The translations under genes and the position numbers were made by a program. The notes beneath the pieces were generated by a model, which was not told the DNA's origin, searched no databases, and was given only the letters and a program-made list of their open reading frames with translations. Source: Candidatus Parcubacteria bacterium (GTDB lineage Bacteria > Patescibacteriota > Saccharimonadia > UBA4664 > JBIOIQ01). Taken from it: a stretch of 64,000 nt of DNA. The stretch is taken from contig OY970378.1 in the NCBI GenBank assembly GCA_963718875.1, positions 1,075,691-1,139,690 of the forward strand, read 5' to 3'. Shown here piece after piece: positions 11,804 to 62,754 of the stretch. Within the stretch, counting starts at the first letter, position 1, and every line of letters begins with the position of its first letter.

Positions 11804-12571
11804 ATGAAAGGCCACGCCATGCGTCGAGCACTTGTCTTTGTTGTCGTAATCGGGCTACTGACCGTAGCCTGCAGAAGCGACAAGGAAGCCCCTTCAACAT
11901 CTTTCCAGCAAGTAGCAGCCGCCGCCGAAGCGGCGGCTCCGGTCAGCACAACCGTCGTCACAACCACCGCCCCACCAGTGGTATCAACTACCATGGTTGC
12001 GCCAACGGCTACCACAGCCCGGCCGACAACCACGATGATGGCTACCACCACAACGGTTCGTCCATCACCTACCACCACCGTGCCAGTCGCCACAACAGCG
12101 GCGCCCGACATGTTCAGCTCCGAACGAGAGTTCGACAAGGTGCTGATTGGCGGGTCGGCGGTTCGCATTGGCCAGGACTTTGCGTCGATGCAAGGCCGGT
12201 TCAGCGATCTGGGATTTGGCCGTTGGCAGTCCCAGACTGCCTTCACTACCTTCGTGTCGGTGAGCGGCGGTAAGATCGTGGCCATCGTCAGCATCCAAGA
12301 CCATGGCCGCCACGCAGCAACCGTGACGGTGCCGGATTTCTACTACGGCATGCAGCTCGCTGAACTACGCATTTGGTACCCCGAGATGCAGTTCGACAAG
12401 TTCGATACCCAGCCTGCGCTGCGAAAGAACCTGCGTAACGGTAGTTTCTACGCCGTAGGAGGAGGTTGCACCACAGGAGGGGTCGACGTGGTGGCAATAG
12501 CCCTAACGGGTTTTCAATCCACTGCGGAACAGATGGTTCATCTCGGGGACTGCAACCCCGACAAGGACTGA
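11804..12571 (+). CDS. Thr/Pro/Ala-rich secreted lipoprotein, compositionally foreign (high GC)
   Basis: Signal peptide with lipobox-like LTVAC, long T/P/A-rich linker, C-terminal globular part. A sampled 60-mer is ~65% GC versus ~47% background. Confidence 0.55.
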   Translation: MKGHAMRRALVFVVVIGLLTVACRSDKEAPSTSFQQVAAAAEAAAPVSTTVVTTTAPPVVSTTMVAPTATTARPTTTMMATTTTVRPSPTTTVPVATTAAPDMFSSEREFDKVLIGGSAVRIGQDFASMQGRFSDLGFGRWQSQTAFTTFVSVSGGKIVAIVSIQDHGRHAATVTVPDFYYGMQLAELRIWYPEMQFDKFDTQPALRKNLRNGSFYAVGGGCTTGGVDVVAIALTGFQSTAEQMVHLGDCNPDKD

Positions 12572-12578
12572 TCCGAAG

Positions 12579-12624
12579 CCCCGAGGACGACGCAATTCGC
12601 GCGTCGTCCTCGGGGCAGTTTTTT
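12579..12624 (+). terminator. intrinsic terminator (perfect 15-bp GC stem plus T6)
   Basis: ccccgaggacgacgc...gcgtcgtcctcgggg followed by tttttt immediately after the high-GC lipoprotein gene. Confidence 0.6.
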
Positions 12625-12688
12625 ATTATAAAGTGCTTGTGCTTATTTTTGCTGCGTGGTATAACCACATTATAAGCGCCGTTTAAAA

Positions 12689-13927
12689 ATGAAATTTCGT
12701 TCAAAATATTGGTTACTGGCCGCAGCATTACTGATTAACTTTCTACCTCTTAACTTTGCTGGCAACAATACTGCACTAGCAGAAAGCAACATCTGTCCCC
12801 TAGCGGGTGACCCACCCATAATGAGTGCTTACAGAACTGCAGAACGTCCCAACCACAAGGGTCTTGATTTGGATGTTCCTGAAGGTACAGCAATTTATGC
12901 AGTTGAGAGCGGCAGCGTTGAAGCGCCTCCGTATGATGACGGTGGTTATGGCGTGTGGCTAATTTTGTCGAGTGGAAATTATACGTTTCGCTACGGGCAT
13001 ATTGGTCAAATAGTCAAAACCGGCTCAGTTAACGCTGGGGACGTTATTGCCTATTCCGACACTAGCGGGAATGCTTCTGCACCTCATCTGCACTGGGAAG
13101 TGCGTAACCCCGTGAACGATATTGATCCAACACCGTTTTGGAATTCTTGCACTGAGCCGGGAGGCGGAGGTGGATCCACTCCAACCGCTCCTCCAGTAAC
13201 TTCACCACCAACTACAGCACCTGTAATAAACCCTGTCCCCGTTACAAACCCTACTCCGGTAAGCTCGGATAGCAGCTGCCACGCCCAGGTCTTGCGCCAA
13301 GGTACCTCTAGCGACTGCGTGACCCACCTTCAGAACCACTTGAACGGCTATGGCTACGGTATTCCTACCACCGGTTATTTTGGTACTATTACTTTCAACT
13401 CAGTCTGTGACTTTCAAAACAAGCACGGCTTATCTCCGTGTGATGGTGTGGTAGGCCCAAACACTTGGAATGCTCTGCATAGCGGCTCTGGTGCGTCAGC
13501 GCCTGTTCAGACAACTCAACCATCGAATCCAACTGTAAGCTCAAACTCTGGGCAAATCGTAAACGAGTATAACGGGTTATGTTTAGATGTACCGGGAGCC
13601 GATTTTAGCAACATGGTTTTTGTGCAGCTGTACGGCTGCAATGGAACTGCTGCCCAAAGATGGACACTAGCATCGAATGGCTCGCTTCAAACAGCCAACA
13701 ACATGTGCTTGGACGTTCGAGATGGCGATACTAGCAATGGCAAGCGTGTGCAAATTTATTCTTGCCTAAATAACGCCAACCAACAATGGCAGCGGCGGTC
13801 AGACCAAACAATTCGGCCAAATATTAATACCAATAAATGCTTGGAGGATTACGGCTTTGGTACCGGTGACGGTGCAATAGTAGCTTTATGGGACTGTAAC
13901 GGTGGGAGTAACCAAAAATGGCGATGA
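12689..13927 (+). CDS. secreted M23 (LytM) peptidase with peptidoglycan-binding domain and C-terminal ricin-B (QxW) lectin domain
   Basis: Signal peptide. HKGLDLDVPEGTAIYAVESGSV...PHLHWEV is the M23 motif set. A PG_binding_1-like segment follows. QxW repeats: AAQRW, NQQWQ, NQKWR. Confidence 0.8.
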   Translation: MKFRSKYWLLAAALLINFLPLNFAGNNTALAESNICPLAGDPPIMSAYRTAERPNHKGLDLDVPEGTAIYAVESGSVEAPPYDDGGYGVWLILSSGNYTFRYGHIGQIVKTGSVNAGDVIAYSDTSGNASAPHLHWEVRNPVNDIDPTPFWNSCTEPGGGGGSTPTAPPVTSPPTTAPVINPVPVTNPTPVSSDSSCHAQVLRQGTSSDCVTHLQNHLNGYGYGIPTTGYFGTITFNSVCDFQNKHGLSPCDGVVGPNTWNALHSGSGASAPVQTTQPSNPTVSSNSGQIVNEYNGLCLDVPGADFSNMVFVQLYGCNGTAAQRWTLASNGSLQTANNMCLDVRDGDTSNGKRVQIYSCLNNANQQWQRRSDQTIRPNINTNKCLEDYGFGTGDGAIVALWDCNGGSNQKWR

Positions 13928-14611: not shown

Positions 14612-14626
14612 TCATTTTATACTGAG

Positions 14627-15277: not shown

Positions 15278-15352
15278 TGGTCGGGGTGAAAGGACTCGAA
15301 CCTTCGGCCTCCTGCTCCCAAAGCAGGCGCGCTACCAACTGCGCCACACCCC
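15278..15352 (-). tRNA. tRNA-Pro (TGG)
   Basis: Acceptor CGGGGTG/CACCCCG, anticodon loop tTTGGGa gives TGG, T-arm GAAGGTTCGAGTCCTTTC, CCA encoded. Confidence 0.9.
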
Positions 15353-15585
15353 GTCCTCCAAGTTGAACTGCGGCCTACAGAATATAATTAATATTCTTTC
15401 AGCCTTCGCTCAACTTCTCGTCTACCCTCGCCAAACAGGCTGGTGCCTTAGTTCGGCTCGGGTTATACGCTCAAGCGATGCTACTATCGCTGCTCCTCTA
15501 AGTTTTGCAAAAAAATAACCCAATGCGGAGCTCGGTTGAACCTGATAATTATAATGTTTTTGAGAAGAGATAGCCATACATGACT

Positions 15586-15618
15586 CGACCCGGCCCCACT
15601 GGTGGTGGGGCCGGGTCG
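15586..15618 (-). terminator. GC-rich 13-bp hairpin downstream of the pup-like gene (actinobacterial-style terminator lacking a clear U-tract)
   Basis: cgacccggcccca...tggggccgggtcg, a perfect inverted repeat. Confidence 0.4.
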
Positions 15619-15695
15619 TACTAGCTGCCGACTACTTGGCAATGTCCGCCGAAGATAGATCTGGATCACCTCCTAACTCGCGGTCGAAGCTCCCA

Positions 15696-15887
15696 TTACT
15701 GGCCGCCCTTCTGGACGTAACTGCGAACGAATTCTTCGGCGTTGTCCTCCAACACCTCGTCGATCTCGTCCAAGAGCTCGTCGAGCTCGGCCTTGAGCTT
15801 GTCACCTTGCTTGGCTGGGAGGGTCGTGTCCACCACCTCGTCTGTTCGAGTGGTGGATTGCTTCCTTTTCTGTTCCCTTTCGGCCAT
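15696..15887 (-). CDS. pup: prokaryotic ubiquitin-like protein Pup homologue (C-terminal GGQ)
   Basis: 63 aa. ...LDELLDEIDEVLEDNAEEFVRSYVQKGGQ is nearly identical in pattern to actinobacterial Pup. GAGGAG RBS. High-GC composition. Confidence 0.8.
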   Translation of the reverse strand: MAEREQKRKQSTTRTDEVVDTTLPAKQGDKLKAELDELLDEIDEVLEDNAEEFVRSYVQKGGQ

Positions 15888-15925
15888 GGGCCGACTCCTC
15901 TCGGGATGCAGTAATCGGATGATTG

Positions 15926-15958
15926 TTGGATAGGCAAGCCGCTGACTTGCCTATCCAA
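15926..15958. promoter_or_regulatory. 33-bp palindrome TTGGATAGGCAAG-N7-CTTGCCTATCCAA upstream of pup (candidate operator)
   Basis: 13-bp perfect inverted repeat. The half-site TTGGATAGG/CCTATCCA recurs upstream of another high-GC island gene at 54473..54492. Confidence 0.3.
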
Positions 15959-16105
15959 CTTCCCGCTCCTACTTAGTGCCTGCGCGCGACTTAGACAGCC
16001 ACAGCTGCGGCTGTCTCGGTTGGGTTGTCAGTGGGCATGGCCACCTCCGTAAATAGACGGATCCTTGATTACCCTTTTATAATACTCATGTAGTCAAGCA
16101 TTACC

Positions 16106-16158: not shown

Positions 16159-16431
16159 TTAGCGGACGATTTCTTTGAGTCGCTTACCCGCTCTAAAACG
16201 AGGCATGGGCATTTCAGGAATCCGAATTTCTGCACCAGTTTGCGGATTTACCCCGCGACGGGCTGCCCGTTTGCCGAGATCAAAAGTGCCAAATCCGGTA
16301 ACCGATACTTTTTCGCCTTTTTTAACAGTACGTCCTACAATTGAAACGAAGGTCGATAAAACCGTTTGAACTTGGCGCTTGGTCATCTTGGTCTCGCCGG
16401 CAAGTGTTTCAATTAGTTGTTGTTTTGTCAT
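16159..16431 (-). CDS. hup: HU family DNA-binding protein
   Basis: Classic HU sequence (GFGTF...RAARRGVNPQTG...). Confidence 0.9.
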   Translation of the reverse strand: MTKQQLIETLAGETKMTKRQVQTVLSTFVSIVGRTVKKGEKVSVTGFGTFDLGKRAARRGVNPQTGAEIRIPEMPMPRFRAGKRLKEIVR

Positions 16432-20098: not shown

Positions 20099-20656
20099 AA
20101 GCCCTTCTTTCTATAAGAATGTGGCAATAAAATCCACAGGTTAAGTCGCTTGGCGCGCTTGCCTGGTTACTCCAAGGTGGTCGTAGCAGTTAGGGAGAAA
20201 TAAAATGAATAAAATTGAGCGGGGAAACTGTAGATGACCGAGAAAAGAAGTAATAGCTTTGCGCTATAAAGCGAAAAATTGTTTAATATCAACATTTGTA
20301 ATTGTCGCTTTTTTTGCTAAGGCCGTCAAGCAAAAGCGATAAGCGATTTTATTAAGTCAGACTTCAAATCGGTTTACTTGGCTATCCAAGATTAAAGTCT
20401 GACTTTGTGTAACGCGATGTGTCACTAGCGAGAAGTCTCGCCCGGGCAGCACGACGTGGCAATCCTGCCTGCCGGCAGGCAGGCAGGCTCATGAGTTTTT
20501 AGAAGTCAGGCTTCGATAACAATAGTTTAAAAATCTGGATTTGAAATTTGACTTCGATACTCGATTATCACGCTTAACCTTGCAGGTCTGAGCTCAACGT
20601 TGTACTATGTTGAAACTGTTGGCCAATGAAGGCTGACTCGAGCTCGTAGGAGCAAG

Positions 20657-20890
20657 ATGAAAGCACTGACGACAAGGGGCGTGGCGTTTTGCAAGCGCCA
20701 TCTGACCTTACAGCCGACCCCCTCCACGACGCACGTACGCAGTCCCCTCCTTCCCATCCTCAACTCCACCTGCAGCAAGTGCCATGCAACGCTCAACCCG
20801 TGCGGAGTCTGTCACGGCCACCGCAGGCACAACTGCAGCACTTGCAACAACACAGGCACGGTCTGTCCCACGCACGGCGGGTTTCACTAG
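20657..20890 (+). CDS. small Cys-rich (CxxC x3) putative zinc-ribbon protein, high-GC island
   Basis: CSKCHATLNPCGVCHGHRRHNCSTCNNTGTVC. GC-rich composition. Followed by a 17-bp GC hairpin terminator. Confidence 0.4.
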   Translation: MKALTTRGVAFCKRHLTLQPTPSTTHVRSPLLPILNSTCSKCHATLNPCGVCHGHRRHNCSTCNNTGTVCPTHGGFH

Positions 20891-20917
20891 AACACGGACA
20901 CGTCGCCCATTCCCCAT

Positions 20918-20968
20918 GAGCCCCCGGCTCCGCCCACCATGGCGGAGCTGGGGGCTCGTTCCCTTTTA
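20918..20968 (+). terminator. intrinsic terminator (17-bp GC stem, one G-U, then T-rich)
   Basis: gagcccccggctccgcc...ggcggagctgggggctc gttcccttttatc. Confidence 0.55.
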
Positions 20969-21051
20969 TCTACCTATTTTAGTTCTCGTTGTCATCTCGA
21001 GCCTGTCGAGAGATGACAGGTGGTTAATACAAAGTTTTTATGGCGAGGCAT

Positions 21052-21540: not shown

Positions 21541-22000
21541 TGTTTAAACTTTCAATGACGTAGTTAAATTTTGAATCAAGCGCGGTTACTTTAATGTGCC
21601 GTGTATTTTCGTCAACTGCTTCTATATCGATGCGAATGCGAGCGGAAGGCATGGCAGTGCCGGCGTTACCCGCCCACTCTACCGCCACAATTACGCTTGG
21701 ATCTCCAACTACTTCAGCCAGCTCTGTAGCGACAATGTCGTCGGAATCAATGCGGTAAAAGTCAAAATGATGCAGCTCCAGGTCATCCCGAACGTGGTAT
21801 ACCCGACTAATGGTAAAGGTTGGGCTTGTAACTTCACCATTATAGTCCAATCCAACAGCCACCCCTTTGACAAGCACGGTCTTGCCACCACCAAGATCGC
21901 TAGCGAGCTCGATTGTCTCGCCGCCTTGAAGGGCTTTACCGAGAGATTCCCCGAGCTTTAAGGTAGCGTTTAGTGATGTGGTAATAGTTTCGTACATCAT
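21533..22000 (-). CDS. tsaE: tRNA threonylcarbamoyladenosine biosynthesis ATPase TsaE
   Basis: SDLGGGKTVLVKG...VTSPTFTI P-loop pattern. Confidence 0.75.
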   Translation of the reverse strand: MMYETITTSLNATLKLGESLGKALQGGETIELASDLGGGKTVLVKGVAVGLDYNGEVTSPTFTISRVYHVRDDLELHHFDFYRIDSDDIVATELAEVVGDPSVIVAVEWAGNAGTAMPSARIRIDIEAVDENTRHIKVTALDSKFNYVIESLNNG

Positions 22001-23339
22001 GGCGGAATTCATAGATTGCGTATCCTATACTAAGCATGGCCAGCCCAATTAGCAACCATGTACCGGAATAATTATTTGCCGATGCTACTAAGGCGGTTTG
22101 GGGTGTGGTTGTCGATTTTTTAGCTTTGGAGGTTTTGGGCTTAGTTGCTTTGGGGACTTTAGGCTTAGCAGCTTTTGTGGTTTTTGTCGTAGACTTGGGT
22201 GTTGAAGTAGCCTTAGCTTTTGTAGTGGAGGCAACGGTTTTGGCTTTTGGAGTTGCAGCAGTTTTTAAGGCAACTGCAGGCACTACCAAAATATTGTCCG
22301 CCCCAGGAGTAGCCTGCATACTCCACCTCCATTCACCGTCGACTAATGACCAGCTTTGCCCGGTAGCGGCTTTGCCATAATCACCGGTTGTACCAACAAT
22401 GTTACCGGCTGGATCAAGTACTTGAGCCGATCCGCCTGCGTTGGTAAGCCCCACATGACTTTGGTTAGAGTAAACGGCTAGGTACGCTCCAGGGGCAATA
22501 ATTACATCTGGTAGATTGTAAAATGAATGAAAATTACTCCCTGCTCGAATTGTGTAGCCTTCAATATTAACGGGATCGGCATTGGGGTTATATAGCTCGA
22601 TAAACTCATTGTGAGCATCGGTTTGAGGTGAAGCTGGGTCGGGCACAAGTTCTGTAATCATTAGCGCTGCGTAAACTGTAGGGGCAGGAGCGGGTTGATC
22701 GTCGACTGGTGGATCTTCGATAGTAACCGGGGAGGTGATAGAAGGATCTTCTAAAACTGCAGTGGTCGACTGGGGTTGTGGGGTGCTTCGTATAACAAAG
22801 TCCTCGGTATTATTATCAGTATCGGTGGAGTTACCACCATCTTCGATCAATCGGCCGGGCAGACGTTCGATGCTCTCCTCTGTTGCAGGAGCCTCCACCG
22901 GAGTGGTTTCGGCCGCGTTGGCAGTCGTGCCCCATCCAACCAGATCAACCACTGCGTTACTCTGATCCTTGAGCCGCACGTGGCCGCCAGTACCAGAGAG
23001 ACCGGCCGTGGAAAGATCGGCATCGGCAGTAGATAAGTAGATCTTTTGGCTTATGAGATAAAACCCGTGCGACTTAACCACACCCGTCAGAGTTGCTCGC
23101 TTTGACCATGAGTTTTCAGCAAGTGCAGATGTAGCGGACTTATATTGCAACACCCATCCATCTACAGATATGTCGCTTGTAGTGGGGTTATAAAGCTCAA
23201 CAAACTCTTGGCCAGAACTTGTAGCTGAACCGGTTTGAATTTCGCTGATAACAAGGGATGTGCTGGCAGATTGAACACTGAGTGGCTTAATTACTAGCAA
23301 TAAAAGTAGACATAATGGAAGGGCTTTAAAGCGCGACAT
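21936..23339 (-). CDS. surface protein with two lamin-tail (LTD) domains, Lys/Thr-rich stalk and C-terminal TM anchor
   Basis: Signal peptide. Two ISEIQ/ITELVP...EF[VI]ELYNP...GW/GY LTD-like repeats. KTTK-rich region. Hydrophobic C-terminus. The stop overlaps tsaE by ~65 nt. Confidence 0.65.
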   Translation of the reverse strand: MSRFKALPLCLLLLLVIKPLSVQSASTSLVISEIQTGSATSSGQEFVELYNPTTSDISVDGWVLQYKSATSALAENSWSKRATLTGVVKSHGFYLISQKIYLSTADADLSTAGLSGTGGHVRLKDQSNAVVDLVGWGTTANAAETTPVEAPATEESIERLPGRLIEDGGNSTDTDNNTEDFVIRSTPQPQSTTAVLEDPSITSPVTIEDPPVDDQPAPAPTVYAALMITELVPDPASPQTDAHNEFIELYNPNADPVNIEGYTIRAGSNFHSFYNLPDVIIAPGAYLAVYSNQSHVGLTNAGGSAQVLDPAGNIVGTTGDYGKAATGQSWSLVDGEWRWSMQATPGADNILVVPAVALKTAATPKAKTVASTTKAKATSTPKSTTKTTKAAKPKVPKATKPKTSKAKKSTTTPQTALVASANNYSGTWLLIGLAMLSIGYAIYEFRHDVRNYYHITKRYLKARGISR

Positions 23340-23912
23340 TAAGAGGGCTCCTTTTTTTAATCACCCTCCTAAGTTTTATACGAGCTCCATAGACTGGAGC
23401 TTTATTTCCATAATATACGAACAAAAAGCGAACAGTCAACACTTTTCTTAGGCTTTTTTACAGTTTAGTAATAAACTAGCTGTTTCTGTTGTGATTTTGC
23501 ACTATTTCTGTTACAAAAGTTCCACGCGCTTCTACGGAAGATGGCGTTTTTTGAAAGGAGTTAGATCAGTGTCAGCGTTCCCTTTAGAAAGGACGGTTAC
23601 CGTGGAACGCGGAATAGTAGTTTTTACGGGAGTAATCCCAGGAACAACCAGTTTGGCTTTATCCGGTCGGAAGCAGGTGATGAGGTCTACTTCAATACAT
23701 TTGGGCGATCGTTCGTCCTAGTGGTTGAAGACGGCATCGGAAGATTTTCCCGAGGCTGGTCAGGGTGGGTTACACTGGTGCCTCCAGTGCAGTTAAGTTT
23801 TGAGTAATACTCGTATGTTACACGGGAGGCACCCGTGTAATCGAATTGTCAGATCGGGACGCGAGGCCTTCGACAAACTCAGGCAGTAAATAGGAATCCA
23901 ATAATAAGCCGG

Positions 23913-24830
23913 TTACCCCAAAATGTGCGCCAGCAAGGCCATCCTCACATACAGGCCGTTTTGGGCTTGACGAAAGTAGGCTGCGCGAGGATCGGTGTCT
24001 ATGATGGGATCGATTTCACCTACTCTTGGTAGCGGATTAAGAATGCGGGACTCGGGCTTCATGCGAGCCAATGTCTCGTTGCCCAATATAAAGCAGGTTT
24101 TATGTTTTTCATACTCTAGCGGATCGGCAAACCGCTCTTTTTGGATACGATTGATATAAACTATGTCGGTAGATCCATCGACGGCCGACAAGCTATCCAC
24201 TTGGCGGTATTTGATGTTTTTATCGTCTAAGTAATGTTTGTATTGCGATGGAAGCTGCAGCTGCTCCGGGGATATTAAGAGGATGGTGGGATGGAAGAGA
24301 CCCATTAGCAATAAAAACGAATGAATGGTGCGGCTATGCTCTAAATCGCCAACTACAGCGATATTTAGGCCTTCCACACTCCCCAACTCTTCCAAAATTG
24401 TAAAGATATCAAGCAGTGCCTGAGTGGGATGGTCTTTGCCTCCGTCACCAGCATTTATGATAGGAACACTTGAAACCGCGGTGGCTCGCTCGGCCGATCC
24501 TGGCTCGGGATGGCGCAAAACGATGGCATCGGCATATCCACCAATAATTTTTATGGTGTCTTCTAGATCCTCACCCTTGATGGCGGAAGAAAATTGCCCG
24601 GCCGATTCCGCCGAGATAGTAGAACCGCCTAGCCTCGTCATGGCTGATTCAAAAGAGAACCGAGTGCGGGTACTCGGTTCGTAGAAAAGATTGGCTAACA
24701 CCTTGCCCTGGAGCAGGGGTCCAGGGGCTTTTCCCTTCATATACTTAGAAGACTCAAATAACATATCCAATATCGAACGATCAAAAAACTGGTCTGTGGA
24801 GATGAAATGACGTGAGTCTGTAATAGTCAT
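23913..24830 (-). CDS. pyrB: aspartate carbamoyltransferase catalytic subunit
   Basis: STRTR, HPTQ and HxLP motifs. Confidence 0.9.
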   Translation of the reverse strand: MTITDSRHFISTDQFFDRSILDMLFESSKYMKGKAPGPLLQGKVLANLFYEPSTRTRFSFESAMTRLGGSTISAESAGQFSSAIKGEDLEDTIKIIGGYADAIVLRHPEPGSAERATAVSSVPIINAGDGGKDHPTQALLDIFTILEELGSVEGLNIAVVGDLEHSRTIHSFLLLMGLFHPTILLISPEQLQLPSQYKHYLDDKNIKYRQVDSLSAVDGSTDIVYINRIQKERFADPLEYEKHKTCFILGNETLARMKPESRILNPLPRVGEIDPIIDTDPRAAYFRQAQNGLYVRMALLAHILG

Positions 24831-43977: not shown

Positions 43978-44015
43978 AGGGAGCCTCCCTTGAAGTTGTT
44001 ATGTTTAATGATCAT
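43974..44015 (+). repeat. REP-like palindromic element copy 1 (AAGGGAGCCTCCCTT + GAAGTTGTTATG)
   Basis: Palindrome immediately after the GNAT stop. Same consensus as 45651, 50036 and 50694. Confidence 0.45.
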
Positions 44016-44029
44016 GTTAAAATAGCTTC

Positions 44030-44347
44030 ATGGATCAAATGCAGCTTATAAAAGACCTTGGTATTGAAGGACTCGACGAGAAACATCAGCAGCAGTTACT
44101 AGCCAGTTTTGCCGACTTGGTGCAACTACGTATGACCGAAAAATTAAATGCTTACCTGGATGACGCTGCCTTAACCGAGTTAGATGACTTGGCCGAACAA
44201 CAAAAAGGCGATGAAGCTTTGGCAAGCCTTGAACAATATGTTCCCAATTATCAAACTATTCTTGCAGAAACAATCGAGGAGACTAAAGTAGAGCTAAAGC
44301 AAGACGCCCAAGCTGTGCTTCAACGCGTAAATAGACCAACGTCCTAA
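44030..44347 (+). CDS. hypothetical acidic protein
   Basis: 105-aa ORF. Confidence 0.4.
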   Translation: MDQMQLIKDLGIEGLDEKHQQQLLASFADLVQLRMTEKLNAYLDDAALTELDDLAEQQKGDEALASLEQYVPNYQTILAETIEETKVELKQDAQAVLQRVNRPTS

Positions 44348-46844: not shown

Positions 46845-49800
46845 GCAAGCCTAAGCAAACTAAAATACTTATACTTGGATCGGGCGGCTTGCGCATTGGA
46901 CAGGCAGGTGAATTTGATTATTCTGGATCCCAAGCCATAAAAGCCCTCAAGGAAGAGGGCATCTATACTGTGTTGATAAACCCAAATGTAGCCACCGTCC
47001 AAACGGATGGAGACATGGCCGATAGGGTCTATTTTCAGCCGCTCAATACGGCGACGGTCACAAAAATTATCAAGCGAGAACGTCCAACTGCTATTTTCCT
47101 AAGTTTTGGTGGTCAAACCGCCCTCAACCTTGGACTAGCGCTAAACGACGATGGAACGCTCGCAAAATACAAAGTTGAGGTACTCGGTACGCCGGTAAAA
47201 GTCATTAAGACCACCGAAGACAGGGAGTTATTTAAAAAAGCATTGTCCCAGATTAATGTTAAAACTGCCAATAGTTTGGCGGTGTACTCTGTGGCAGAGG
47301 CACTAAGCGCTGCCAAAAAAATTGGCTACCCAGTAATGATGCGGTCTGGATACAGCCTAGGCGGTCTGGGGTCAGGACGGGTAGAAACAGCTGGGGAACT
47401 CAAGACCAAAACTGCCGAAGCATTTCAGGCTGTGCCCCAAATATTAATTGAAGAATATTTGGGAGGATGGAAAGAGGTGGAATACGAGGTAGTTAGGGAT
47501 GCAGGTGGTAATGCTATAACCGTATGCAACATGGAAAACTTGGATCCTATGGGTATCCATACCGGAGAAAGCATTGTGGTGGCACCGTCACAAACTTTGA
47601 CCAATGAAGAATACCACCGCTTGCGGGAAATTGCCATCAAGACCATTTCACACCTGGGGATTATTGGTGAATGCAACATCCAATATGCGCTGAATCCAAT
47701 TAGTGGCGACTATCGGGTTATTGAGGTTAATGCCCGCCTCAGCCGCTCGAGCGCTTTAGCCTCCAAAGCTACCGGATACCCGCTGGCACATGTGGCGACC
47801 AAGCTAATGTTGGGTCAGCTGTTAAACGAAATTAAAAATTCTGTTACCGGTTCCACGCCAGCTTTTTTTGAGCCAGCTTTGGACTACATTGCAGTCAAAA
47901 TGCCGCGCTGGGACCTAGATAAGCTCAAATCGAGTAGTCATAGATTAGGTTCTGAAATGAAAAGCGTAGGGGAGGTCATGGCCCTCGGGCGTTCTTTCCC
48001 AGAGGCTTTGCAAAAAGCCATTCGAATGCTTGGCATTGGCGCAGATGGACTATCTTATAATCCTCATAAATTCCTTAAACCCATTGATGAAGTCCAGCAG
48101 GCTACGGATAGGCGCTTGTTTGCTGTATACGAGCTGTTTAAACGCGGTCACGACGTGGAAGAACTTCACCGAATGTCCTCTATTGACCGGTGGTTTTTAC
48201 ATCACATTAAGTCAATTCAGGAATTGGAGAAGGAATTAGGCGCTTCCCCGCTGTCACGCGACCGTTTGCTTCAAGCTAAAAAAATGGGGTTTTCAGATAA
48301 GTCTCTGGCTAGATTGCAGGGTACAACCGAACCTGTTATTCGAGCACGACGTAAAAAGCTTGGGATTACGCCGGTTATAAAGCAAATTGACACATTGGCA
48401 GGAGAGTTTGATGCTGAAACCAATTATCTTTATGCGACTTATCATGGTTCTAGTACGGACGTCAAACCACTTAGCAAAAAACCGGTAATCGTTTTGGGGT
48501 CTGGCCCATACTGCATTGGCTCATCGGTTGAGTTTGACTGGTGCGCTGTCAATACCGCTAAAACATTGCGACAGCAGAACCGTCCTACAATTATCATTAA
48601 CTCTAATCCTGAAACGGTTTCGACAGATTTTGACCATTCTGATAGATTGTATTTTGAAGAGTTGACATTAGAGAGGGTGCAAGACATTGCGGAATTTGAG
48701 TCTGGTGCAAGTATTGTAGTGTCAGTTGGAGGCCAAATTGCGAATAACTTGGCGTTGCCTCTGAATAAGGCCGGTTTTAGTATTTTGGGAACTGCAGCAG
48801 AATCAATCGACCAAGCGGAGGATCGAAAAAAGTTTTCATCAATGCTAAACCGTCTTGGGGTTGACCAGCCAGAATGGGAAGAGGTGACAACCTATGCGAA
48901 TGCCAAAAAATTTGCGAAAAAAGTAGGTTATCCCGTGTTGATTCGTCCTTCATACGTTTTGTCTGGCGGAGCCATGAACGTTGTAACGGACGAATTTGAG
49001 CTTAAGCATTATTTGGAGGCGGCAACTCACCTTTCCCCAGATCATCCGGTAGTATTGTCGCAGTTTATTACTAATGCCAAAGAGCTAGAAGTTGATGGAG
49101 TAGCCGATAATGGCCAAGTAGTGATTTATGCGATCAGTGAGCATGTGGAAAACGCTGGCATTCATTCTGGAGATGCCACAGTAGTGTTGCCGCCTCAGCG
49201 GTTGTACCTGGAAACGATTCGTCGCAGTAAAAGCATTACTAAGCAAATTGTTAAGACTCTCGGTATTACTGGTCCTTTTAATATCCAGTTTATTGCTAAG
49301 GATAACGATATAAAAGTTATTGAGTGCAACGTCCGGGCCTCCCGTTCATTCCCTTTTGTTTCTAAAGTAACCAACCATAACTTCATTGCCATCGCTACTA
49401 TGACTATGCTTGGCAAGGCGCCGAGGGCAGAGTATCAAACTTTGGAGCTTGATTATGTCGGCGTAAAAAGTCCGCAATTTTCGTACAACCGCCTTAAAGG
49501 AGCCGACCCAGTGGCGGGAGTGGAAATGGCCTCTACTGGCGAGGTGGCATGCTTGGGAAGTGACCTTGTGGAAGCATTTTACGCCTCTTGGCTTGCTACC
49601 GAGCAAAGCGTACGTGGTAAAAGTCTGTTTGTTAGTATTGGCGGGGATCATAAGCACAAGCTGATTGATGAAATCCAAAAACTTCATGGGTTGGGTTGGA
49701 AATTATCTGCCACTGAAGGAACGCGAGATTATTTGAAGGTTCGCGGCGTCCCTTCCAAGTGTCTTTACAAGCTGAGCGAGCAGGTTGAGCCAAGTGTGGC

Positions 49801-50023
49801 GACGGCTATTTTAAAACGTAAACTTGATCTAATCATAAGCATTCCATCAGGCACGGATACCAACAAAGACGGATTTGAAATGAGGCGCCTCGCAATAGAC
49901 AACCACATACCTCTGGTAACTAACGCGGAAATTGCCAAGTTATTATTGCGTTGCTTAGCCGAAGTTGATCTCAATAAACTTGAACCAAGATCGTGGCAGG
50001 AGTTTATGGAAGCACGAGATTAA
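46841..50023 (+). CDS. carB: carbamoyl-phosphate synthase large subunit
   Basis: 1060 aa, two ATP-grasp halves, MGS-like C-terminus. Confidence 0.95.
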   Translation: MSKPKQTKILILGSGGLRIGQAGEFDYSGSQAIKALKEEGIYTVLINPNVATVQTDGDMADRVYFQPLNTATVTKIIKRERPTAIFLSFGGQTALNLGLALNDDGTLAKYKVEVLGTPVKVIKTTEDRELFKKALSQINVKTANSLAVYSVAEALSAAKKIGYPVMMRSGYSLGGLGSGRVETAGELKTKTAEAFQAVPQILIEEYLGGWKEVEYEVVRDAGGNAITVCNMENLDPMGIHTGESIVVAPSQTLTNEEYHRLREIAIKTISHLGIIGECNIQYALNPISGDYRVIEVNARLSRSSALASKATGYPLAHVATKLMLGQLLNEIKNSVTGSTPAFFEPALDYIAVKMPRWDLDKLKSSSHRLGSEMKSVGEVMALGRSFPEALQKAIRMLGIGADGLSYNPHKFLKPIDEVQQATDRRLFAVYELFKRGHDVEELHRMSSIDRWFLHHIKSIQELEKELGASPLSRDRLLQAKKMGFSDKSLARLQGTTEPVIRARRKKLGITPVIKQIDTLAGEFDAETNYLYATYHGSSTDVKPLSKKPVIVLGSGPYCIGSSVEFDWCAVNTAKTLRQQNRPTIIINSNPETVSTDFDHSDRLYFEELTLERVQDIAEFESGASIVVSVGGQIANNLALPLNKAGFSILGTAAESIDQAEDRKKFSSMLNRLGVDQPEWEEVTTYANAKKFAKKVGYPVLIRPSYVLSGGAMNVVTDEFELKHYLEAATHLSPDHPVVLSQFITNAKELEVDGVADNGQVVIYAISEHVENAGIHSGDATVVLPPQRLYLETIRRSKSITKQIVKTLGITGPFNIQFIAKDNDIKVIECNVRASRSFPFVSKVTNHNFIAIATMTMLGKAPRAEYQTLELDYVGVKSPQFSYNRLKGADPVAGVEMASTGEVACLGSDLVEAFYASWLATEQSVRGKSLFVSIGGDHKHKLIDEIQKLHGLGWKLSATEGTRDYLKVRGVPSKCLYKLSEQVEPSVATAILKRKLDLIISIPSGTDTNKDGFEMRRLAIDNHIPLVTNAEIAKLLLRCLAEVDLNKLEPRSWQEFMEARD

Positions 50024-50029
50024 CGATAA

Positions 50030-50066
50030 GCACTTAAAGGGAGGCTCCCTCTAAGCACTTAAGCTT
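50030..50066 (+). repeat. REP-like palindromic element copy 3 (AAGGGAGGCTCCCTCT) immediately upstream of the Y1-transposase-like gene
   Basis: Same GGGAG..CTCCC palindrome. The tail differs: TAAGCACTTAA direct repeat on both sides. Confidence 0.35.
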
Positions 50067-50098
50067 GCTTAGGCGAACAAAAACCGTACAATGATTTT

Positions 50099-50725
50099 AT
50101 GCCAAGGATCAATGCCGTAAAACCCTATATCGAAAACACCTACTACCATGTATACAACCGTGGAGTAGATAAGGAATTGATATATATTGATGATCAGGAT
50201 TACCATTACTTTATTCGCCTGTTAAATTTCTACTTGACTCCAGCTAAGTTTGAAGCGGAAACCTTATTTCGAAATCGATCGTGGAGATCAATAGAAAATG
50301 ATTTATCAATGGACGTAAAGCTTATATCCTATTGTTTGATGCCAAATCATTTTCATCTTCTACTCAAGCAACTACCCAATGATGGCCTAACTAAATTAAT
50401 GAAACGAGTTAGTGCGTCTTACGCCCTTTATTTCAATCTCAAGCATCAAAGAGTTGGACATTTGTTTGAGTCGAGCTGCAAAGCCAGGGCTATTTTCAAT
50501 GATGAGGATTTTATTGGGACCAACGCATACGTTCATCGAAACGCAAAAGATATTATGTACGACTACACTAAGTACCCTTACTCAAATCTGAAAGATATTA
50601 TTACGATGACAAAAAATTCTTGGACGAGTCCAACAGAGTTGCTTGAATTCTTTAACGGCGATCCCGTTAATTATCGTGATTACGTTTTAGTTGAGAGGGA
50701 GGCTCCCTTGAAATTGTTATGCTAA
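50099..50725 (+). CDS. HUH Y1 transposase-like protein (IS200-like; possibly REP-associated tyrosine transposase, RAYT)
   Basis: YHVYNRG near the N-terminus, HuH motif LMPNHFHLLL, conserved Tyr region NAYVHRN. Flanked by REP-like palindromes. Confidence 0.55.
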   Translation: MPRINAVKPYIENTYYHVYNRGVDKELIYIDDQDYHYFIRLLNFYLTPAKFEAETLFRNRSWRSIENDLSMDVKLISYCLMPNHFHLLLKQLPNDGLTKLMKRVSASYALYFNLKHQRVGHLFESSCKARAIFNDEDFIGTNAYVHRNAKDIMYDYTKYPYSNLKDIITMTKNSWTSPTELLEFFNGDPVNYRDYVLVEREAPLKLLC

Positions 50726-51691: not shown

Positions 51692-52417
51692 CTAGGCCGG
51701 TTCTTCTGGCAAATCGGCATTGGTATAGGTTTCTGTCACATCGTCTAGTTCGTCTAGTGCTTCCATCAGTTTCATAACAGTTTCGGCGGATTTGCCGTCT
51801 ACTGCCACCATAGTTTGAGGAATGTAGCTTAAGACGGCTGATTCAATTTCATATTGTGCATCACTCAAAGCTTTGCGAACTTTATCCAGGTCAGAAGGAG
51901 CGGTATATGCTAATAGGCCTTTTTCAATTTCGTCAATGTCTTCAGCGCCTGCTTCGATGGCGTCCAAAGTCCCCTGGTCTTTGTCGCTGGCCTTGATCTC
52001 GATCACGCCCTTTTGGTCAAACTGGTACGCCACAGAACCGGCCGTGCCCATACTGCCGCCGTGCTTGGAAAATGCTGAACGCACTTCTGGTGCCGTGCGA
52101 TTGCGATTATCGGTGGCTGTTTCGACAATAACTGCCACTCCACCAGGACCATAACCTTCATAAATTACTTCTTCTAGCGCCGCTCCCCCATCCAGCCCGG
52201 CTCCACGCCTAATGGCGCGCTCGATATTATTGTTTGGGACGCCCGCTTTGCGGGCTTGATCAACGGCCAGACGTAGCTTAAAGTTCGACTCAGGTTCTGC
52301 GCCACCGCGGGCGGCAACGGAAATAAGATTAGCGAATTTGGTAAAAGCCGCTCCACGACGGGCATCTTTGATACCTTTTTGGTGCTTGATTGTGGCCCAT
52401 TTAGAATGTCCTGACAT
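51692..52417 (-). CDS. yebC: YebC/PmpR family DNA-binding transcriptional regulator
   Basis: MSGHSKWATIKH start. Confidence 0.9.
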   Translation of the reverse strand: MSGHSKWATIKHQKGIKDARRGAAFTKFANLISVAARGGAEPESNFKLRLAVDQARKAGVPNNNIERAIRRGAGLDGGAALEEVIYEGYGPGGVAVIVETATDNRNRTAPEVRSAFSKHGGSMGTAGSVAYQFDQKGVIEIKASDKDQGTLDAIEAGAEDIDEIEKGLLAYTAPSDLDKVRKALSDAQYEIESAVLSYIPQTMVAVDGKSAETVMKLMEALDELDDVTETYTNADLPEEPA

Positions 52418-53943: not shown

Positions 53944-54112
53944 AATGAGGGCTCCAAGCCCTCATTAAATATTGGTCTTATTGTGTCATGGAACTAGTTA
54001 GAATTTCAAGCTAAATTTAGTTTAGTCAGCTTTGTACATTATATGACAACGTCCTCTAGCCGAACCCTAAGGATCCAGCTAGAGGACGTTTGAGCAGAAC
54101 GAGGCGATGTGG

Positions 54113-54454
54113 CTAGAACACCAAGCGACCGTTCCGGCGAACTTCGATGACTTCACCCGTGCTGGTGTTGTTGACGCCGAACTTGCGACCGAACCTGACG
54201 ATTCGATCGACCGATGTCCGATCCGGACTGATCAGAAGCTGTCCGAAGGTCCGGCTATTGGTCTGGATGAAGACCCCATGCACCCGGGTCGACGTAACGG
54301 TAGAGCCGGTAGCCCTTGTGAAGTACCAGTTCGACGCGTCAGTTCGGACCCAAAGCACCTCGCCAGGGTCCAGCTCGGCCAGATCGAACTCGAACGTTCG
54401 ATTGGTGCTCGGGTGGGGCTTGACGGTGCCACCGTCTCTCATTGCTGATCTCAT
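54113..54454 (-). CDS. hypothetical protein, high-GC island; start chosen at ATG 54454 with GGAGG RBS
   Basis: ~56% GC. Palindrome CCTATCCA-ctc-TTGGATAGG just upstream. Confidence 0.4.
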   Translation of the reverse strand: MRSAMRDGGTVKPHPSTNRTFEFDLAELDPGEVLWVRTDASNWYFTRATGSTVTSTRVHGVFIQTNSRTFGQLLISPDRTSVDRIVRFGRKFGVNNTSTGEVIEVRRNGRLVF

Positions 54455-54518
54455 TGGGCCTCCCCAATGTAGCCTATCCACTCTTGGATAGGAGTTGTCG
54501 GCCAATCCCTCCATTCCG

Positions 54519-55530
54519 TTTTGAATCAGGACAGTCAACCCGTAGAGTGTCATCATGGTAAAAGCTACTAAACTAACATCGGCAGAGCGTTCGGAAATAG
54601 AAATTCTTTTAAATAAAGGTCACACTCTTAGGGCCATTGGTCGGGCTTTGGGCCGGAGCCTCAATACCATCAGTGATGAGGTGAAGCGTAATAAGACCCC
54701 GGAAGGCTACAATGCCCGCATCGCCAAACAAAAAGCCTACGTCAAACGCAAGTATGCCAAGTACCAGGGCAAGAAGATCCAGGAGAATGATGATTTGCGC
54801 TGGTACATCATTGTGCGCCTCATGGATGGCTGGAATCCCGATGAGATAGCGGGACGACTAAAAAAAGATCAGCACGGTTACTATGCCTCTAAGACAGCCA
54901 TCTACGAATGGCTCGACAGCGCCAGAGGGCAGAAGTACTGTGACTACCTGCCCTCCCGTAGGTACAGACCAAAGAAGCGCAAACCAAAGACCGATCGGGT
55001 GATGATTCCAGATCGGGTGAGTATTACAGAGCGCCCCCATGAAGCTACCGTCCGGAGCGAAGTGGGCCACTATGAGGGGGATACCATCGTTAGCGGCAAG
55101 CGGACTGGATCAAAAGCAGCAATCGTAGTGATTCAGGAACGAGTCACCAGACTGATTGCTGCTAGACCCATCCCAGACTTGTGTCCGGTGAGCTTTAATG
55201 GAGCCATCAGCTCTTCCAAACTGGTCTTGCTCTCATCAGCAGTCTGACTCTCGACAACGGTATCGAGAACCGTTGGCACAGATTGCTCGATATGCTCGTT
55301 TTTTTCTGTGACCCCTATTCTAGCTGGCAAAAAGGAGGGGTGGAAAACGCCAACCGAATGATTCGGCACTACTTGCCCAAAGGCATGGATCTAGCCACCG
55401 TGACGAACAAAGAATTGCAGCGTATCATTACGATCATAAACAACAAACCCAGGAAGATCCTGGGATATATGTCCGCTATTGAAATGGCTAAAGAGAAAGG
55501 AGTTTTACGAGAGACTGTCCTGATTGAGGG
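54519..55530 (+). mobile_element. IS30-family insertion sequence with 13-bp terminal inverted repeats (AATCAGGACAGTC)
   Basis: IR at 54524..54536 and its exact reverse complement at 55513..55525. Internal IS30-type transposase. Confidence 0.7.
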
Positions 55531-55534
55531 GTGA
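54555..55534 (+). pseudogene. IS30 transposase, split into two frames (230 aa plus 83 aa) by a frameshift near 55247-55283
   Basis: N-terminal HTH, DDE region with HYEGDTIV, C-terminal SWQKGGVENANRMIRHYLPKG in a different frame. Confidence 0.6.
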
Positions 55535-58233: not shown

Positions 58234-58313
58234 TCGTCGCAACGACATTTCGGTTTACGTATCATATCCGAATACTTCAACCTCATGTCGTTGTTCCTAA
58301 AGACGGGGTGATC

Positions 58314-58372
58314 CCCTATCCGGAGCGCCAAACTAGGCAGTAGTTTGAGTTTGGCTTCCGATAGGGAATGAC
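58314..58372 (-). other. conserved two-tier hairpin element, copy Y (reverse orientation), ~75 nt upstream of tRNA-Lys
   Basis: The reverse complement aligns with 40776..40838. Outer stem TCCCTATCGGA/TCCG(G)ATAGGG. Confidence 0.4.
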
Positions 58373-58515
58373 GGTGATATGCTTTTTCACGAGGGGCAAG
58401 CGTTTTTAACAACCGAGCTACTATATCTTAAATCAGCCTCAAAATCAATTTGGCAGTTTGCACAAAGCTTTTACACAAGCAGTATGGCATCCTTAATTAA
58501 CTAATCGAGGGAAAT

Positions 58516-61538: not shown

Positions 61539-61798
61539 CTATGGAAAGAGATGAGCGATTTTTGGATAGTGACAGCCGAGTTGTTCAATGGCCATCCAAG
61601 CAGGCAGATAAAGAATCAATTTTGGGATACTTAGCTAGCAAGTTTAGTAAGGAGCGGCCTTATAGCGAAATTGAAGTAAATGAAATATTGAAAGAATGGC
61701 ATACCTTTAGTGATTGGCCATTGCTGCGGCGTGAACTTTATGAGCGTGGTTATTTCGACCGGAACATCTCGGGGAGTGAGTACCGGCGACTGAAATGA
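61535..61798 (+). CDS. small DUF2087-like protein
   Basis: Pattern ...WHTFSDWPLLRRELYERGYFDR. Confidence 0.35.
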   Translation: MTMERDERFLDSDSRVVQWPSKQADKESILGYLASKFSKERPYSEIEVNEILKEWHTFSDWPLLRRELYERGYFDRNISGSEYRRLK

Positions 61799-61880
61799 CA
61801 TGACGACTCGACAGATCGACTTGTTTAGTTTATAATTTGGCATTAGGTGAATCCAACGAGTCTTTCGAGGAGGAGTTGAC

Positions 61881-62540
61881 ATGAGCAAAAGCCACACGAT
61901 TTGCATTGATGGAGGTCCGGGGTCTGGAAAGAGCACTGTCGGGATGATGCTCGCCCGATTGCTCGGGTACAGGTTCTTCAGCGCAGGTGATCACTTCCGA
62001 ACCTTCGCTCTGGCTGCACTTCGATATGGAGTTATCCAAGATGGCGAGGTCGACATGACTCGCTGTTTGGAGCTACTTGGCAATGTCGGCATAACAACCG
62101 ACGGCCGCGGAAGCTTCTATCTAAACGGTCTGTTGTTCAAGCAGACTGAGCTTCACTCCAAAGAAGCGACGGCGGCAGTCCACCTCGTAGCAGCAGTGCA
62201 GGAAGTGCGCGATTGGCACAACCGATGCATGCGTGACTATGCCGCAGGGCACGACGGGTGCGTCGTGTTCGAGGGACGACTGACGTGGGAGGTCTTCTCT
62301 GAGGCCATGCACTTTGCCTTCCGCGTACGCGACGAAGTCGCTCACCAGCGGACGACGAGCGGTAAAGGTGCTGACGTGGCGGAAGTCAACCACGATCGGC
62401 ACCGACACGATCTCACAAGGAAAGTTGCTCCAGTTAAGGAAGCTCCGGACGCCCACGTCATTGACACCTCCGATCGAACCCCCGATTCGGTGGTTGAGGA
62501 GATAGATCGAGTCAGAAAAGAGTGGCTGGTCGCCGTATAG
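61881..62540 (+). CDS. cytidylate kinase-like P-loop NMP kinase, high-GC island
   Basis: ICIDGGPGSGKSTVG...SAGDHFR resembles the Cmk N-terminus. GAGGAGG RBS. ~58% GC. Confidence 0.55.
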   Translation: MSKSHTICIDGGPGSGKSTVGMMLARLLGYRFFSAGDHFRTFALAALRYGVIQDGEVDMTRCLELLGNVGITTDGRGSFYLNGLLFKQTELHSKEATAAVHLVAAVQEVRDWHNRCMRDYAAGHDGCVVFEGRLTWEVFSEAMHFAFRVRDEVAHQRTTSGKGADVAEVNHDRHRHDLTRKVAPVKEAPDAHVIDTSDRTPDSVVEEIDRVRKEWLVAV

Positions 62541-62754
62541 CCACTTTCGTAGCACTTAACCGGTCGGATCATCAAATCTGACTGGTCGGCGGGATCCAAG
62601 TATGGATCCCGCCACAACCCAAGGTTTTAATCGCAACGATTGAAGTTTTAGGTTGTCATGACAGCATCAAGACTATTGCCTGAGCCTGTCGAAGGCCTTA
62701 CTTTTATGCCCTTCGATTACACTCAGGGTCTTCGACAGGGAATAAAAGAAACGA

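Follow-up and report, generated by a model that had tools for sequence, protein, structure and literature searches.

The stretch of DNA analyzed here, 64,000 nt of contig OY970378.1 (hereafter the window), belongs to a Saccharimonadia (Candidate Phyla Radiation (CPR)/TM7) chromosome of about 1.19 Mb (1,189,924 bp). It contains seven GC-rich blocks, which we read, with a probability of roughly 0.6, as accessory genes acquired or exchanged by horizontal transfer from GC-richer pools and placed in variable hot-spot slots between core genes. The evidence is that their composition is foreign, that junctions of core genes are polymorphic for their presence, that one donor belongs to another phylum and that slots are re-used. 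These GC-rich blocks carry the codon usage of a roughly 55–60% GC genome, and the unit is made up of an AT-rich promoter of the sigma-70 type, a Shine-Dalgarno site, one open reading frame (ORF) and a stable GC hairpin. A first reading of the same DNA, here called the original prediction, had listed eight high-GC blocks of one ORF each. We label them I1 to I8 in window order, and each of them indeed corresponds to one ORF, as follows.

I1: 11804-12571 (+), 255 aa; GC 0.59, GC at third codon positions (GC3) 0.65, synonymous excess z 4.2
I2: 15696-15887 (-), pup, prokaryotic ubiquitin-like protein, 63 aa, ending in GGQ
I3: 20657-20890 (+), Cys-rich mini-protein of 77 aa; GC3 0.78
I4: 34530-35003 (-), 157 aa, annotated as P0148; in a variable slot
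I5: 37767-38204 (-), orphan of 145 aa; GC3 0.74
I6: 41054-41575 (+), 173 aa, of a rare family whose C-terminal WLxxWLP motif is conserved
I7: 54113-54454 (-), 113 aa, orphan in the libraries searched
I8: 61881-62540 (+), 219 aa, divergent cytidylate-kinase-like P-loop kinase; GC3 0.62

Foreign composition of the islands

The GC content of the window is 46.1% (400-nt sliding windows: mean 46.1%, standard deviation (sd) 4.5%). The blocks I1 to I8 have 59.2, 58.1, 62.5, 52.7, 58.4, 57.1, 58.5 and 56.8% GC, and their 1-kb flanks have 38–50%. As background we used 44 non-overlapping ORFs of at least 150 aa, with a GC of 0.456±0.033, a GC3 of 0.436±0.051 and a maximum GC3 of 0.56. Against this background, the GC3 of all blocks except I4 is 0.62–0.78 (z 3.7–6.8), their synonymous-codon log-likelihood under the host model lies 3.4–5.7 sd under the mean, and their tetranucleotide distance from the host reaches z 3.2–6.6. 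Re-encoding the island proteins with the codon usage of the host predicts only 47–52% GC, and a synonymous GC excess of 6–11 points (z 3.5–6.2) is left over in the seven blocks. The sliding-window GC, codon and tetranucleotide checks that had been proposed thus find a composition that is not uniform, with seven blocks as outliers (GC 56.8–62.5%).

The eighth block does not share this property. I4 has a GC3 of 0.50 and a synonymous excess of z 1.1, the host codon model fits it best, and its hairpin reaches only -15.7 kcal/mol; it lies outside the GC-rich codon class, and its modest GC stems from amino-acid composition. No further islands of the same type were found in the window, and the remaining GC peaks (22621-23021, 51921-52361 and 63141-63861) are conserved native genes with a GC3 of at most 0.50.

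The maximal GC-rich segments, namely 11810-12616, 15586-16049, 20631-20963, 37688-38283, 41070-41645, 54050-54465 and 61911-62620, match an ORF plus its hairpin, from about the start codon to the hairpin end, and the island promoters sit outside them, in AT-rich DNA. The coding pattern within each island is GC3 > GC1 > GC2.

Both C-ending and G-ending codons are raised in the islands (CAG, GAG, AAG, CTG, GCG, ACG, GTC and TTC), which indicates a general GC pressure. For example, the codon fractions in islands versus background are 0.65 and 0.36 for CAG, 0.75 and 0.39 for AAG, 0.28 and 0.13 for CTG, and 0.83 and 0.22 for TTC. A codon model built from L008, a Saccharimonadia locus of 57% GC, beats the host model for 7/7 islands, while for 5/5 control host genes the host codon model fits best. 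Compared with a 69% GC model of the Acidimicrobiales type, the 57% GC model is clearly better for five islands and nearly equal for I2, I5 and I7. Because the codon usage suits the 57% GC model, the source pool was either moderately GC-rich, with GC-rich Saccharimonadia as candidates, or very GC-rich with partial amelioration since. GC-rich Saccharimonadia do exist, as the GC of the relatives spans 30–57%.

The raised GC3 might instead mean that the islands are small native genes whose codons are adapted to very high expression, and the near-consensus promoters of I1, I5 and I8, the strong Shine-Dalgarno sites and terminators and the preference for C-ending codons in two-fold pyrimidine families would all fit high expression. 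We regard this as highly unlikely, since the G-ending codons CAG, GAG, AAG, CTG, GCG and ACG are raised as well and the islands fit the host model worse than the foreign 57% GC one. Moreover, HU, a native and presumably highly expressed protein, has a GC3 of only 0.38, and DnaJ and RNase Y have 0.49–0.50; the window has no ribosomal protein genes for calibrating native optimal codons.

Variable slots between core genes

Relatives were compared as fetched loci, among which L004, L085 and L091 are more distant and L171 and L172 closer, with L172 the closest (housekeeping proteins 75–88% identical to those of the window; the glgP product of L171 is 78% identical). The closest glgA loci come from Saccharimonadia metagenome-assembled genomes (MAGs), with 66% identity to GcC11-16. 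The gene content of the window is typical of the group, including RNase Y, TsaBE, PilB with PilMNO, ComEC, a lamin-tail-domain protein and glycogen genes. Most native proteins are 50–80% identical to relatives, and RuvB is the best conserved, at 88% to the nearest relative.

The synteny comparison covered the junctions of I3, I5, I6 and I8. All four lie exactly at synteny gaps and are missing in L004, L085 or L091, as listed below.

ruvA–glgA slot: 144 nt in L004; 1.5 kb in the window, with I5
glgA–glgP slot: 90 nt in L004; 1.5 kb in the window, with I6
amylase–dnaJ slot: 8 nt in L004; 1.2 kb in the window, with a DUF2087 gene and I8
tsaB–rny slot: about 180 nt in L085 and L091; 954 nt in the window, with I3

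The small DUF2087 gene that shares the slot of I8 (61541-61798) has native GC (~42%) and is not in L004. Insertions of ordinary GC also occur, at 43363-45654 and 21936-24830; variability of the slots is therefore not restricted to GC-rich genes.

The slots are hot spots, as the closest relative carries other GC-rich ORFs at the positions of I4 and I5. In L172 the I5 slot holds an intact but unrelated 132-aa ORF (Smith-Waterman z 1.4) with a GC3 of 0.71, the highest of that locus, and the I4 slot holds an unrelated 144-aa ORF (z -0.3), while the proteins flanking the two slots are 74–88% identical between the window and L172. Conserved between the two I5 slots are the promoter block TTGACAAACATGAG, the 3' arm of the hairpin and, after it, a small terminator CCCCAACCCAAGC...TTTAG; the 5' untranslated region and the ORF are unalignable. 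The I5 slot thus looks like a resident expression slot with a replaced payload, the alternative being a payload that has diverged beyond recognition. This pattern of conserved flanks and a swapped payload comes from one pairwise comparison, window versus L172.

As for mobility context, I1 lies near a tRNA-Gly, I2 near a tRNA-Pro and I7 near an IS30 remnant, neighbours that are suggestive only; nothing of the kind was seen near I3, I5, I6 and I8.

Architecture of the islands

The promoters and hairpins of the seven islands are given below, with hairpin free energies.

I1: promoter-like site, 11734-11762 (+), TTGACT-17-TATAAT with TG, 11/12; AT-rich, just outside the GC segment
I1: hairpin, 12578-12616 (+), 16-bp GC stem then TTTTTT, -38.1 kcal/mol
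I2: hairpin, 15588-15617 (-), without U-tract, -27.3 kcal/mol; 235 nt from tRNA-Pro (15278-15353)
I3: hairpin, 20918-20957 (+), stem of 17–19 bp, -40.3 kcal/mol
I5: promoter, 38303-38331 (-), TTGACA-17-TATAAT with TG, perfect consensus, 12/12
I5: GC hairpin, 37712-37741 (-), -25.9 kcal/mol, then a small T-run hairpin, 37674-37707 (-)
I6: promoter and ribosome-binding-site (RBS) block, 40995-41053 (+), TAGTGTAAAGTATG...CGAGGTGA, conserved with L171 and L172
I6: hairpin, 41607-41646 (+), -26.3 kcal/mol, conserved in L171 and L172
I7: hairpin, 54049-54088 (-), -31.4 kcal/mol
I8: promoter-like site, 61808-61836 (+), TCGACA-17-TATAAT, 11/12
I8: GC hairpin, 62588-62613 (+), -23.4 kcal/mol, then a small T-run hairpin, 62616-62651 (+)

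Three islands (I1, I5 and I8) were scanned for the sigma-70 consensus. The strong RBS that had been claimed is visible upstream of the islands as a Shine-Dalgarno AGGAG or GGAGG. The strong GC terminators are even stronger than had been stated. Behind each of the seven islands, no more than ~80 nt past the stop codon, comes a GC hairpin with a free energy between -23.4 and -40.3 kcal/mol; downstream of 54 background genes the best is -18.2 and the median -9.9 kcal/mol, and 0/54 reach -23 kcal/mol. Strong hairpins are therefore a feature of this class and not a habit of the genome.

The hairpins of I2, I5, I7 and I8 have no directly adjoining U-tract and resemble 'I-shaped' terminators, GC hairpins without U-trail that are reported as the predominant predicted form in Mycobacterium tuberculosis, an actinobacterium of high GC (PMC3152330). 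Like these, they are long GC stems. Unlike these, I1 and I3 have U-tracts, and behind the GC hairpins of I5 and I8 comes a second, small terminator with a U-tract. This resemblance lends some weight to the proposal that the terminators of the donor were retained, but the terminator of the I5 slot is partly resident (conserved with L172), and since the hairpins of the I5 and I6 slots are conserved among Saccharimonadia, they need not be donor-derived.

An element of ~35 nt, AACCCAAG...ATCGC...TTTTAG, is common to I5 (37674-37707, -) and I8 (62616-62651, +), in both cases behind the GC hairpin. The element folds as a small T-run hairpin and is kept in the I5 slot of L172 (about 5185-5269), and no more copies were found in 2.3 Mb of fetched loci.

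A unit of one ORF plus an imperfect palindrome, with payloads that differ at the same position in related genomes, recalls integron-like or other site-specific cassettes moved by a dedicated hairpin-recognising recombinase. The 3' element common to I5 and I8 would suit this, as would the large serine recombinase, the IS30 remnant and the IS200-like transposase in the window. However, the units are scattered over 11.8–62.6 kb and not arrayed, and they have promoters of their own (I1, I5 and I8, with a conserved promoter block in I6). The seven hairpins are unrelated in sequence and show no GTTRRRY/RYYYAAC (attC) cores on inspection, the IS200 ends AAGGGAGGCTCCCTT are unlike them, the 3' element resembles an ordinary small terminator, and the ORFs scanned with Pfam or NCBIfam include no tyrosine integrase. 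Such cassettes are thus very improbable. The cassette-type mechanism that had been offered as an option survives loosely, as conserved slot flanks with swapped payload, and not in the integron sense.

Could the islands be artefacts, namely a chimeric assembly, contaminating high-GC reads or structured RNA genes? High-GC Actinomycetota occur in the same type of sample, and L169, which holds a pup homologue, and L172 come from runs with adjacent accessions, presumably of one project. Nevertheless, the islands are precisely ORF-sized with promoters of the host type, I6 itself and the flanks of the I5 slot are conserved in other genomes, and I5 and I8 occur with their host flanks in a separate Logan assembly of ERR12037361, which may be of the same reads. 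Rfam was empty in the islands (at the gathering threshold it gave five tRNAs only in the whole window), and the codon periodicity points the same way. The reading as RNA genes was also pursued and rejected, as permissive Rfam scans of I3 and I4 were empty and ORF bodies fold like shuffled sequences (z -1.2, -0.6 and +1.6). An artefact is extremely unlikely, the least probable of the explanations considered here.

A solitary actinobacterial pup gene

I2 had been named as Pup, and the profile matches agree: PF05639 at 2e-20 (73.8 bits, cutoff 27) and TIGR03687 at 67.8 bits (cutoff 41.45), with the C-terminus ...YVQKGGQ. The gene, with a GC3 of 0.77, sits between hupB (16159-16431) and the tRNA-Pro. 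We obtained 6,331 homologues. The best match with 92–94% identity along their full length, and those with a name belong to Acidimicrobiales and Actinomycetota. The closest homologues (89–94% identical) are found in canonical mpa-dop-pup-prcBA clusters, on contigs of the Acidimicrobiales type with 64–70% GC. In 3/5 traced contigs dop (Pup_ligase) lies directly upstream of pup, with mpa, prcB, prcA and pafA present as well on the longer contigs; the fourth pup comes directly after a cut, unannotated ORF of 353 aa, and the fifth contig starts just upstream of pup. The GC of these five contigs is 63–70%, and none of the nearest Pup genes is in a low-GC or CPR context. At the DNA level, pup is 75–79% identical to the traced homologues, and the identity is confined to the ORF and its RBS.

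Because Pup is 89–94% identical to these proteins while the most conserved housekeeping protein of the window reaches only 88% to its nearest relative, we conclude from sequence comparison that pup was transferred from an Acidimicrobiales-like actinobacterium. As there are many synonymous differences, the donor species is unsampled or the transfer is not very recent. The predicted uptake from a high-GC donor is hence borne out for pup, while a single donor for the islands did not emerge. As for the taxonomic affiliations that were to be checked, pup leads to Acidimicrobiales/Actinomycetota, I6 to Saccharimonadia-like contexts only, and I8 is without a close relative.

Like the Pup of the actinobacterial Pup-proteasome system, that of the window is full-length, ends in GGQ and passes the family thresholds. 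Unlike it, the gene is solitary within 64 kb and lies in a CPR genome: none of dop, pafA, mpa and prcAB is present in the 64-kb window. No link between Saccharibacteria and Pup was found in the literature searched.

I6, an old resident that has stayed GC-rich

The I6 protein has a predicted structure of a 3-helix bundle followed by an 8-strand beta-barrel. An MliC/PliC-type lysozyme inhibitor was considered; such a protein would be exported, and the I6 N-terminus MANVPTAPVTITEEQF has no hydrophobic signal and the 3-helix domain precedes the barrel. Matches to giant PKD or ankyrin repeat proteins were judged spurious. Orthologues lie directly upstream of glgP in L171 (46–48% identical) and L172 (40–42% identical), and the three genomes have in common the promoter block, the RBS, the first residues, the C-terminus and the hairpin. 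The ratio of non-synonymous to synonymous substitution rates (dN/dS) of I6 is about 0.35–0.4, versus 0.05 for glgA, and the synonymous sites of the neighbours are saturated.

Since all three genomes keep the gene at this position, together with its promoter and hairpin, I6 was already in place when the window genome, L171 and L172 still shared an ancestor, and it has evolved fast since. Not every transfer was recent or independent, as I6 was resident before the three sampled lineages split, and the 'repeated independent uptake' of the original prediction does not fit this gene.

Several observations weigh against horizontal transfer from GC-richer pools as the account of all seven blocks, and several of them concern I6. 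Among 1.84 billion representative proteins it has no relatives outside Saccharimonadia-like contexts. Its time in the slot was sufficient for the synonymous sites of its neighbours to saturate, and its GC3 is still 0.65 in the window and 0.68 in L171, where the hosts have 0.44 and 0.56, respectively. In addition, a family member 29% identical to I6 is a 64% GC island with a GC3 of 0.83 in flanks of 43% GC. The GC-richness of I6 is unexplained by passive retention of donor composition. The pooled island codon usage is closer to a ~57% GC genome than to the 69% GC actinobacterial contigs, and the Cmk-like I8 gene has no relative above 34% identity. A donor was found for pup only, where the searches of large collections covered I2, I6 and I8. 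No integrase or recombination site linked with the islands was found, and the route of uptake is one that we infer.

These points lead to another explanation, in which the islands are native, lineage-specific and fast-evolving, their GC is actively maintained, be it by GC-biased gene conversion at recombination hot spots or by selection for stable mRNA (with a GC-rich body and a 3' hairpin of high stability), and pup is the sole import. The conservation of the slot, control elements, termini and hairpin of I6, its raised dN/dS, its lasting GC3 beside saturated neighbours and its even GC-richer distant relative all agree with this. So do the I5 slot of L172, which keeps promoter and hairpin around an ORF of similar length (145 vs 132 aa), and the GC3 of pup (0.77), which equals or exceeds that of its five actinobacterial homologues (0.57–0.71). 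On the other hand, the proteins encoded at the I4 and I5 positions show no similarity between the window and L172, beside well-conserved flanking proteins, and the slots are empty in L004, L085 and L091. Maintenance is also not universal, as the I6 orthologue of L172 has drifted to host composition (GC3 0.52), and a mechanism for local GC bias is not known in these bacteria. We therefore regard a native origin as unlikely, though it is the likeliest alternative to the transfer reading.

Proposed route of acquisition

Under the transfer reading, DNA may have entered by natural transformation, as the window has ComEC and type IV pilus genes (PilB). Short fragments would be fixed only where they are transcriptionally insulated in the very compact genome. 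Because the intergenic spacers in relatives are only 8–180 nt, such a filter would favour short inserts ending in a strong terminator, and we propose that insulation accounts for the pattern of one gene plus one strong hairpin per islet. Later, payloads might be replaced through recombination between the conserved promoter and terminator flanks.

A more specific proposal is that Saccharimonadia keep monocistronic expression slots, each with a resident consensus promoter and hairpin-terminator, into which GC-rich ORFs from the actinobacterial hosts or from a shared GC-rich accessory pool are repeatedly swapped without integrase, by transformation and recombination in the short conserved flanks, and that the payloads are host-interaction genes, including a host-derived Pup that could act on host pupylation. 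We mention this as speculation of low probability.

Individually transferred genes and small genomic islets, identified from incongruent best hits and an atypical composition, have been reported for Patescibacteria, with competence as a route (PMC12455944), and horizontal gene transfer between a Saccharimonadia genus and its actinobacterial partner has been reported as well (bioRxiv 10.64898/2026.09.16.751625). The islands resemble those islets in their foreign composition, their absence from relatives, the competence and pilus genes and the one origin in Actinomycetota. They differ in that the units are strictly one gene, are GC-rich and not AT-rich, and have an exceptionally stable hairpin each; at least two slots of the window have a promoter and terminator conserved across genomes, and I6 is old yet GC-rich.

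A second comparison is with hypervariable loci. Capsule, O-antigen and bacteriocin-immunity loci are replaced through homologous flanks and keep an atypical GC for long. The slots of the window are similar in their conserved flanks, unrelated or highly divergent alleles, lasting atypical composition and the raised dN/dS of I6. Here, by contrast, the units are single small genes and the conserved flanks are just a promoter and a terminator of about 40–60 nt.

Other island genes

In the I1 protein, a signal peptide (lipobox-like TVAC) and a linker rich in Thr, Ala and Pro precede a C-terminal domain without family, and its only Pfam match is a weak, mucin-like one. The gene starts 160 nt from the tRNA-Gly (11569-11643). 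The PDB sequence search with I1 was empty, as was tblastn of its domain against plasmids. I3 has CxxC motifs of the DnaJ zinc-finger type and weakly resembles the zinc-finger region of a dnaJ gene; AGGAG lies 6 nt 5' of its ATG, and it is absent from the called proteins of the collection. I5 had no match in Pfam, NCBIfam, PHROGs, PADLOC, PDB, or phage or plasmid records, and its single-sequence AlphaFold2 model, with a pLDDT of 38, is unusable.

For I7 the public annotation gives the opposite strand, 54107-54448 (+), as P0149, a frame with a GC1 of 0.72 and a GC3 of 0.54. The minus frame has a GC3 of 0.73, GGAGG upstream of its ATG and a downstream hairpin, and P0149 was probably called on the wrong strand. 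I7 sits outside the degenerate IS30, 70 nt from its left inverted repeat; the PDB sequence search and tblastn against phage records were empty.

That I8 is Cmk-like, as had been predicted, is supported by PF02224 (Cytidylate_kin; 2.2e-26 over residues 7-209) and by the P-loop GGPGSGKST. It scores under the equivalog cutoff of the bacterial Cmk (TIGR00017, 76 bits vs 135.55). Its best homologues are 31–34% identical, and 3/6 were traced to ordinary bacterial aroA-cmk-plsC operons on metagenome contigs of unidentified origin; tblastn against phage records gave only remote cmk matches.

A phage or plasmid origin of the islands was considered and has no support in PHROGs, IMG/VR or the tblastn phage and plasmid searches: PHROGs gave no matches for the islands, and IMG/VR scans of I5, I6, I7 and the I6 family gave none. 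PADLOC found no defence systems in the islands. Pfam scans of alternative-frame island ORFs, in which out-of-frame donor fragments were sought, also gave no matches.

Other features of the window

Mobile elements and recombinases outside the islands are the following.

8329-9954: ORF of a serine recombinase
50099-50725: IS200-like Y1 transposase gene, 37% GC; the element, 50019-50725, is bounded by AAGGGAGGCTCCCTT hairpins
54524-55525: degenerate IS30-family element with perfect 13-bp terminal inverted repeats (54524-54536 / 55513-55525)

The IS30 transposase is broken into 54555-55247 and 55283-55534. The IS200-like element is at the same place in L172 (15048-15674; protein identity 79%), and a solo copy of its hairpin AAGGGAGGCTCCCTT lies at 43974-44009. 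Between glgA and I6 there is an AT-rich insert of ~800 nt (40192-40994, 27–37% GC) that is not in L172. A repeat of ~65 nt within it recurs, inverted, at 58310-58375 beside tRNA-Lys, and the insert has the look of a small dispersed element of the MITE type.

The intergenic motif CCTGAGCCTGTCGAAGG is dispersed, with copies at 38365-38396, 62674-62705, 23864-23888 (reverse complement) and 20999-21009 of the window and at 2462-2475 of L005, a related MAG; three of the copies are close to islands, a marginal enrichment (2/100 shuffles). GAGCCTGTCGA, near I3, I5 and I8, was tried as a shared boundary motif and rejected as a dispersed intergenic repeat that also occurs elsewhere and in L005, with marginal enrichment (2/100 shuffles).

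The genes pyrB, carA and carB are in the window at 23913-24830 and 45732-50023. De novo pyrimidine genes are unusual among CPR bacteria. Those of the window recall a Saccharimonadia genus for which complete nucleotide biosynthesis has been described (bioRxiv 10.64898/2026.09.16.751625).

In the glgA comparison, five contigs titled 'uncultured Gammaproteobacteria' (L005, L006, L007, L009 and L010) have a glgA 54–59% identical to that of the window, closer than most Saccharimonadia loci, and L009 and L010 additionally carry a Saccharimonadia-type glgP. Their bins are probably mislabelled.

Meaning for Saccharimonadia

Saccharimonadia are obligate epibionts, and the cultured members live on Actinomycetota. 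The extent to which they take up DNA of their hosts is unsettled. TM7x is reported to give no strong sign of host-derived genes (McLean et al. 2020, PMC7427843). The pup gene described here is a clear example of a gene from Actinomycetota that has become fixed in the chromosome of a member of the Saccharimonadia. A solitary Pup in a parasite of pupylating bacteria is moreover a testable lead for host manipulation.

A single GC-rich ORF that is combined with a hairpin of high stability and lies in a conserved intergenic slot provides a signature for counting such genes genome-wide. Finally, both the persistently high GC3 of the fast-evolving resident I6 and a slot with conserved control elements and unrelated payloads, seen in few comparisons, are relevant to the turnover of accessory genes in genomes that are very small and highly syntenic.

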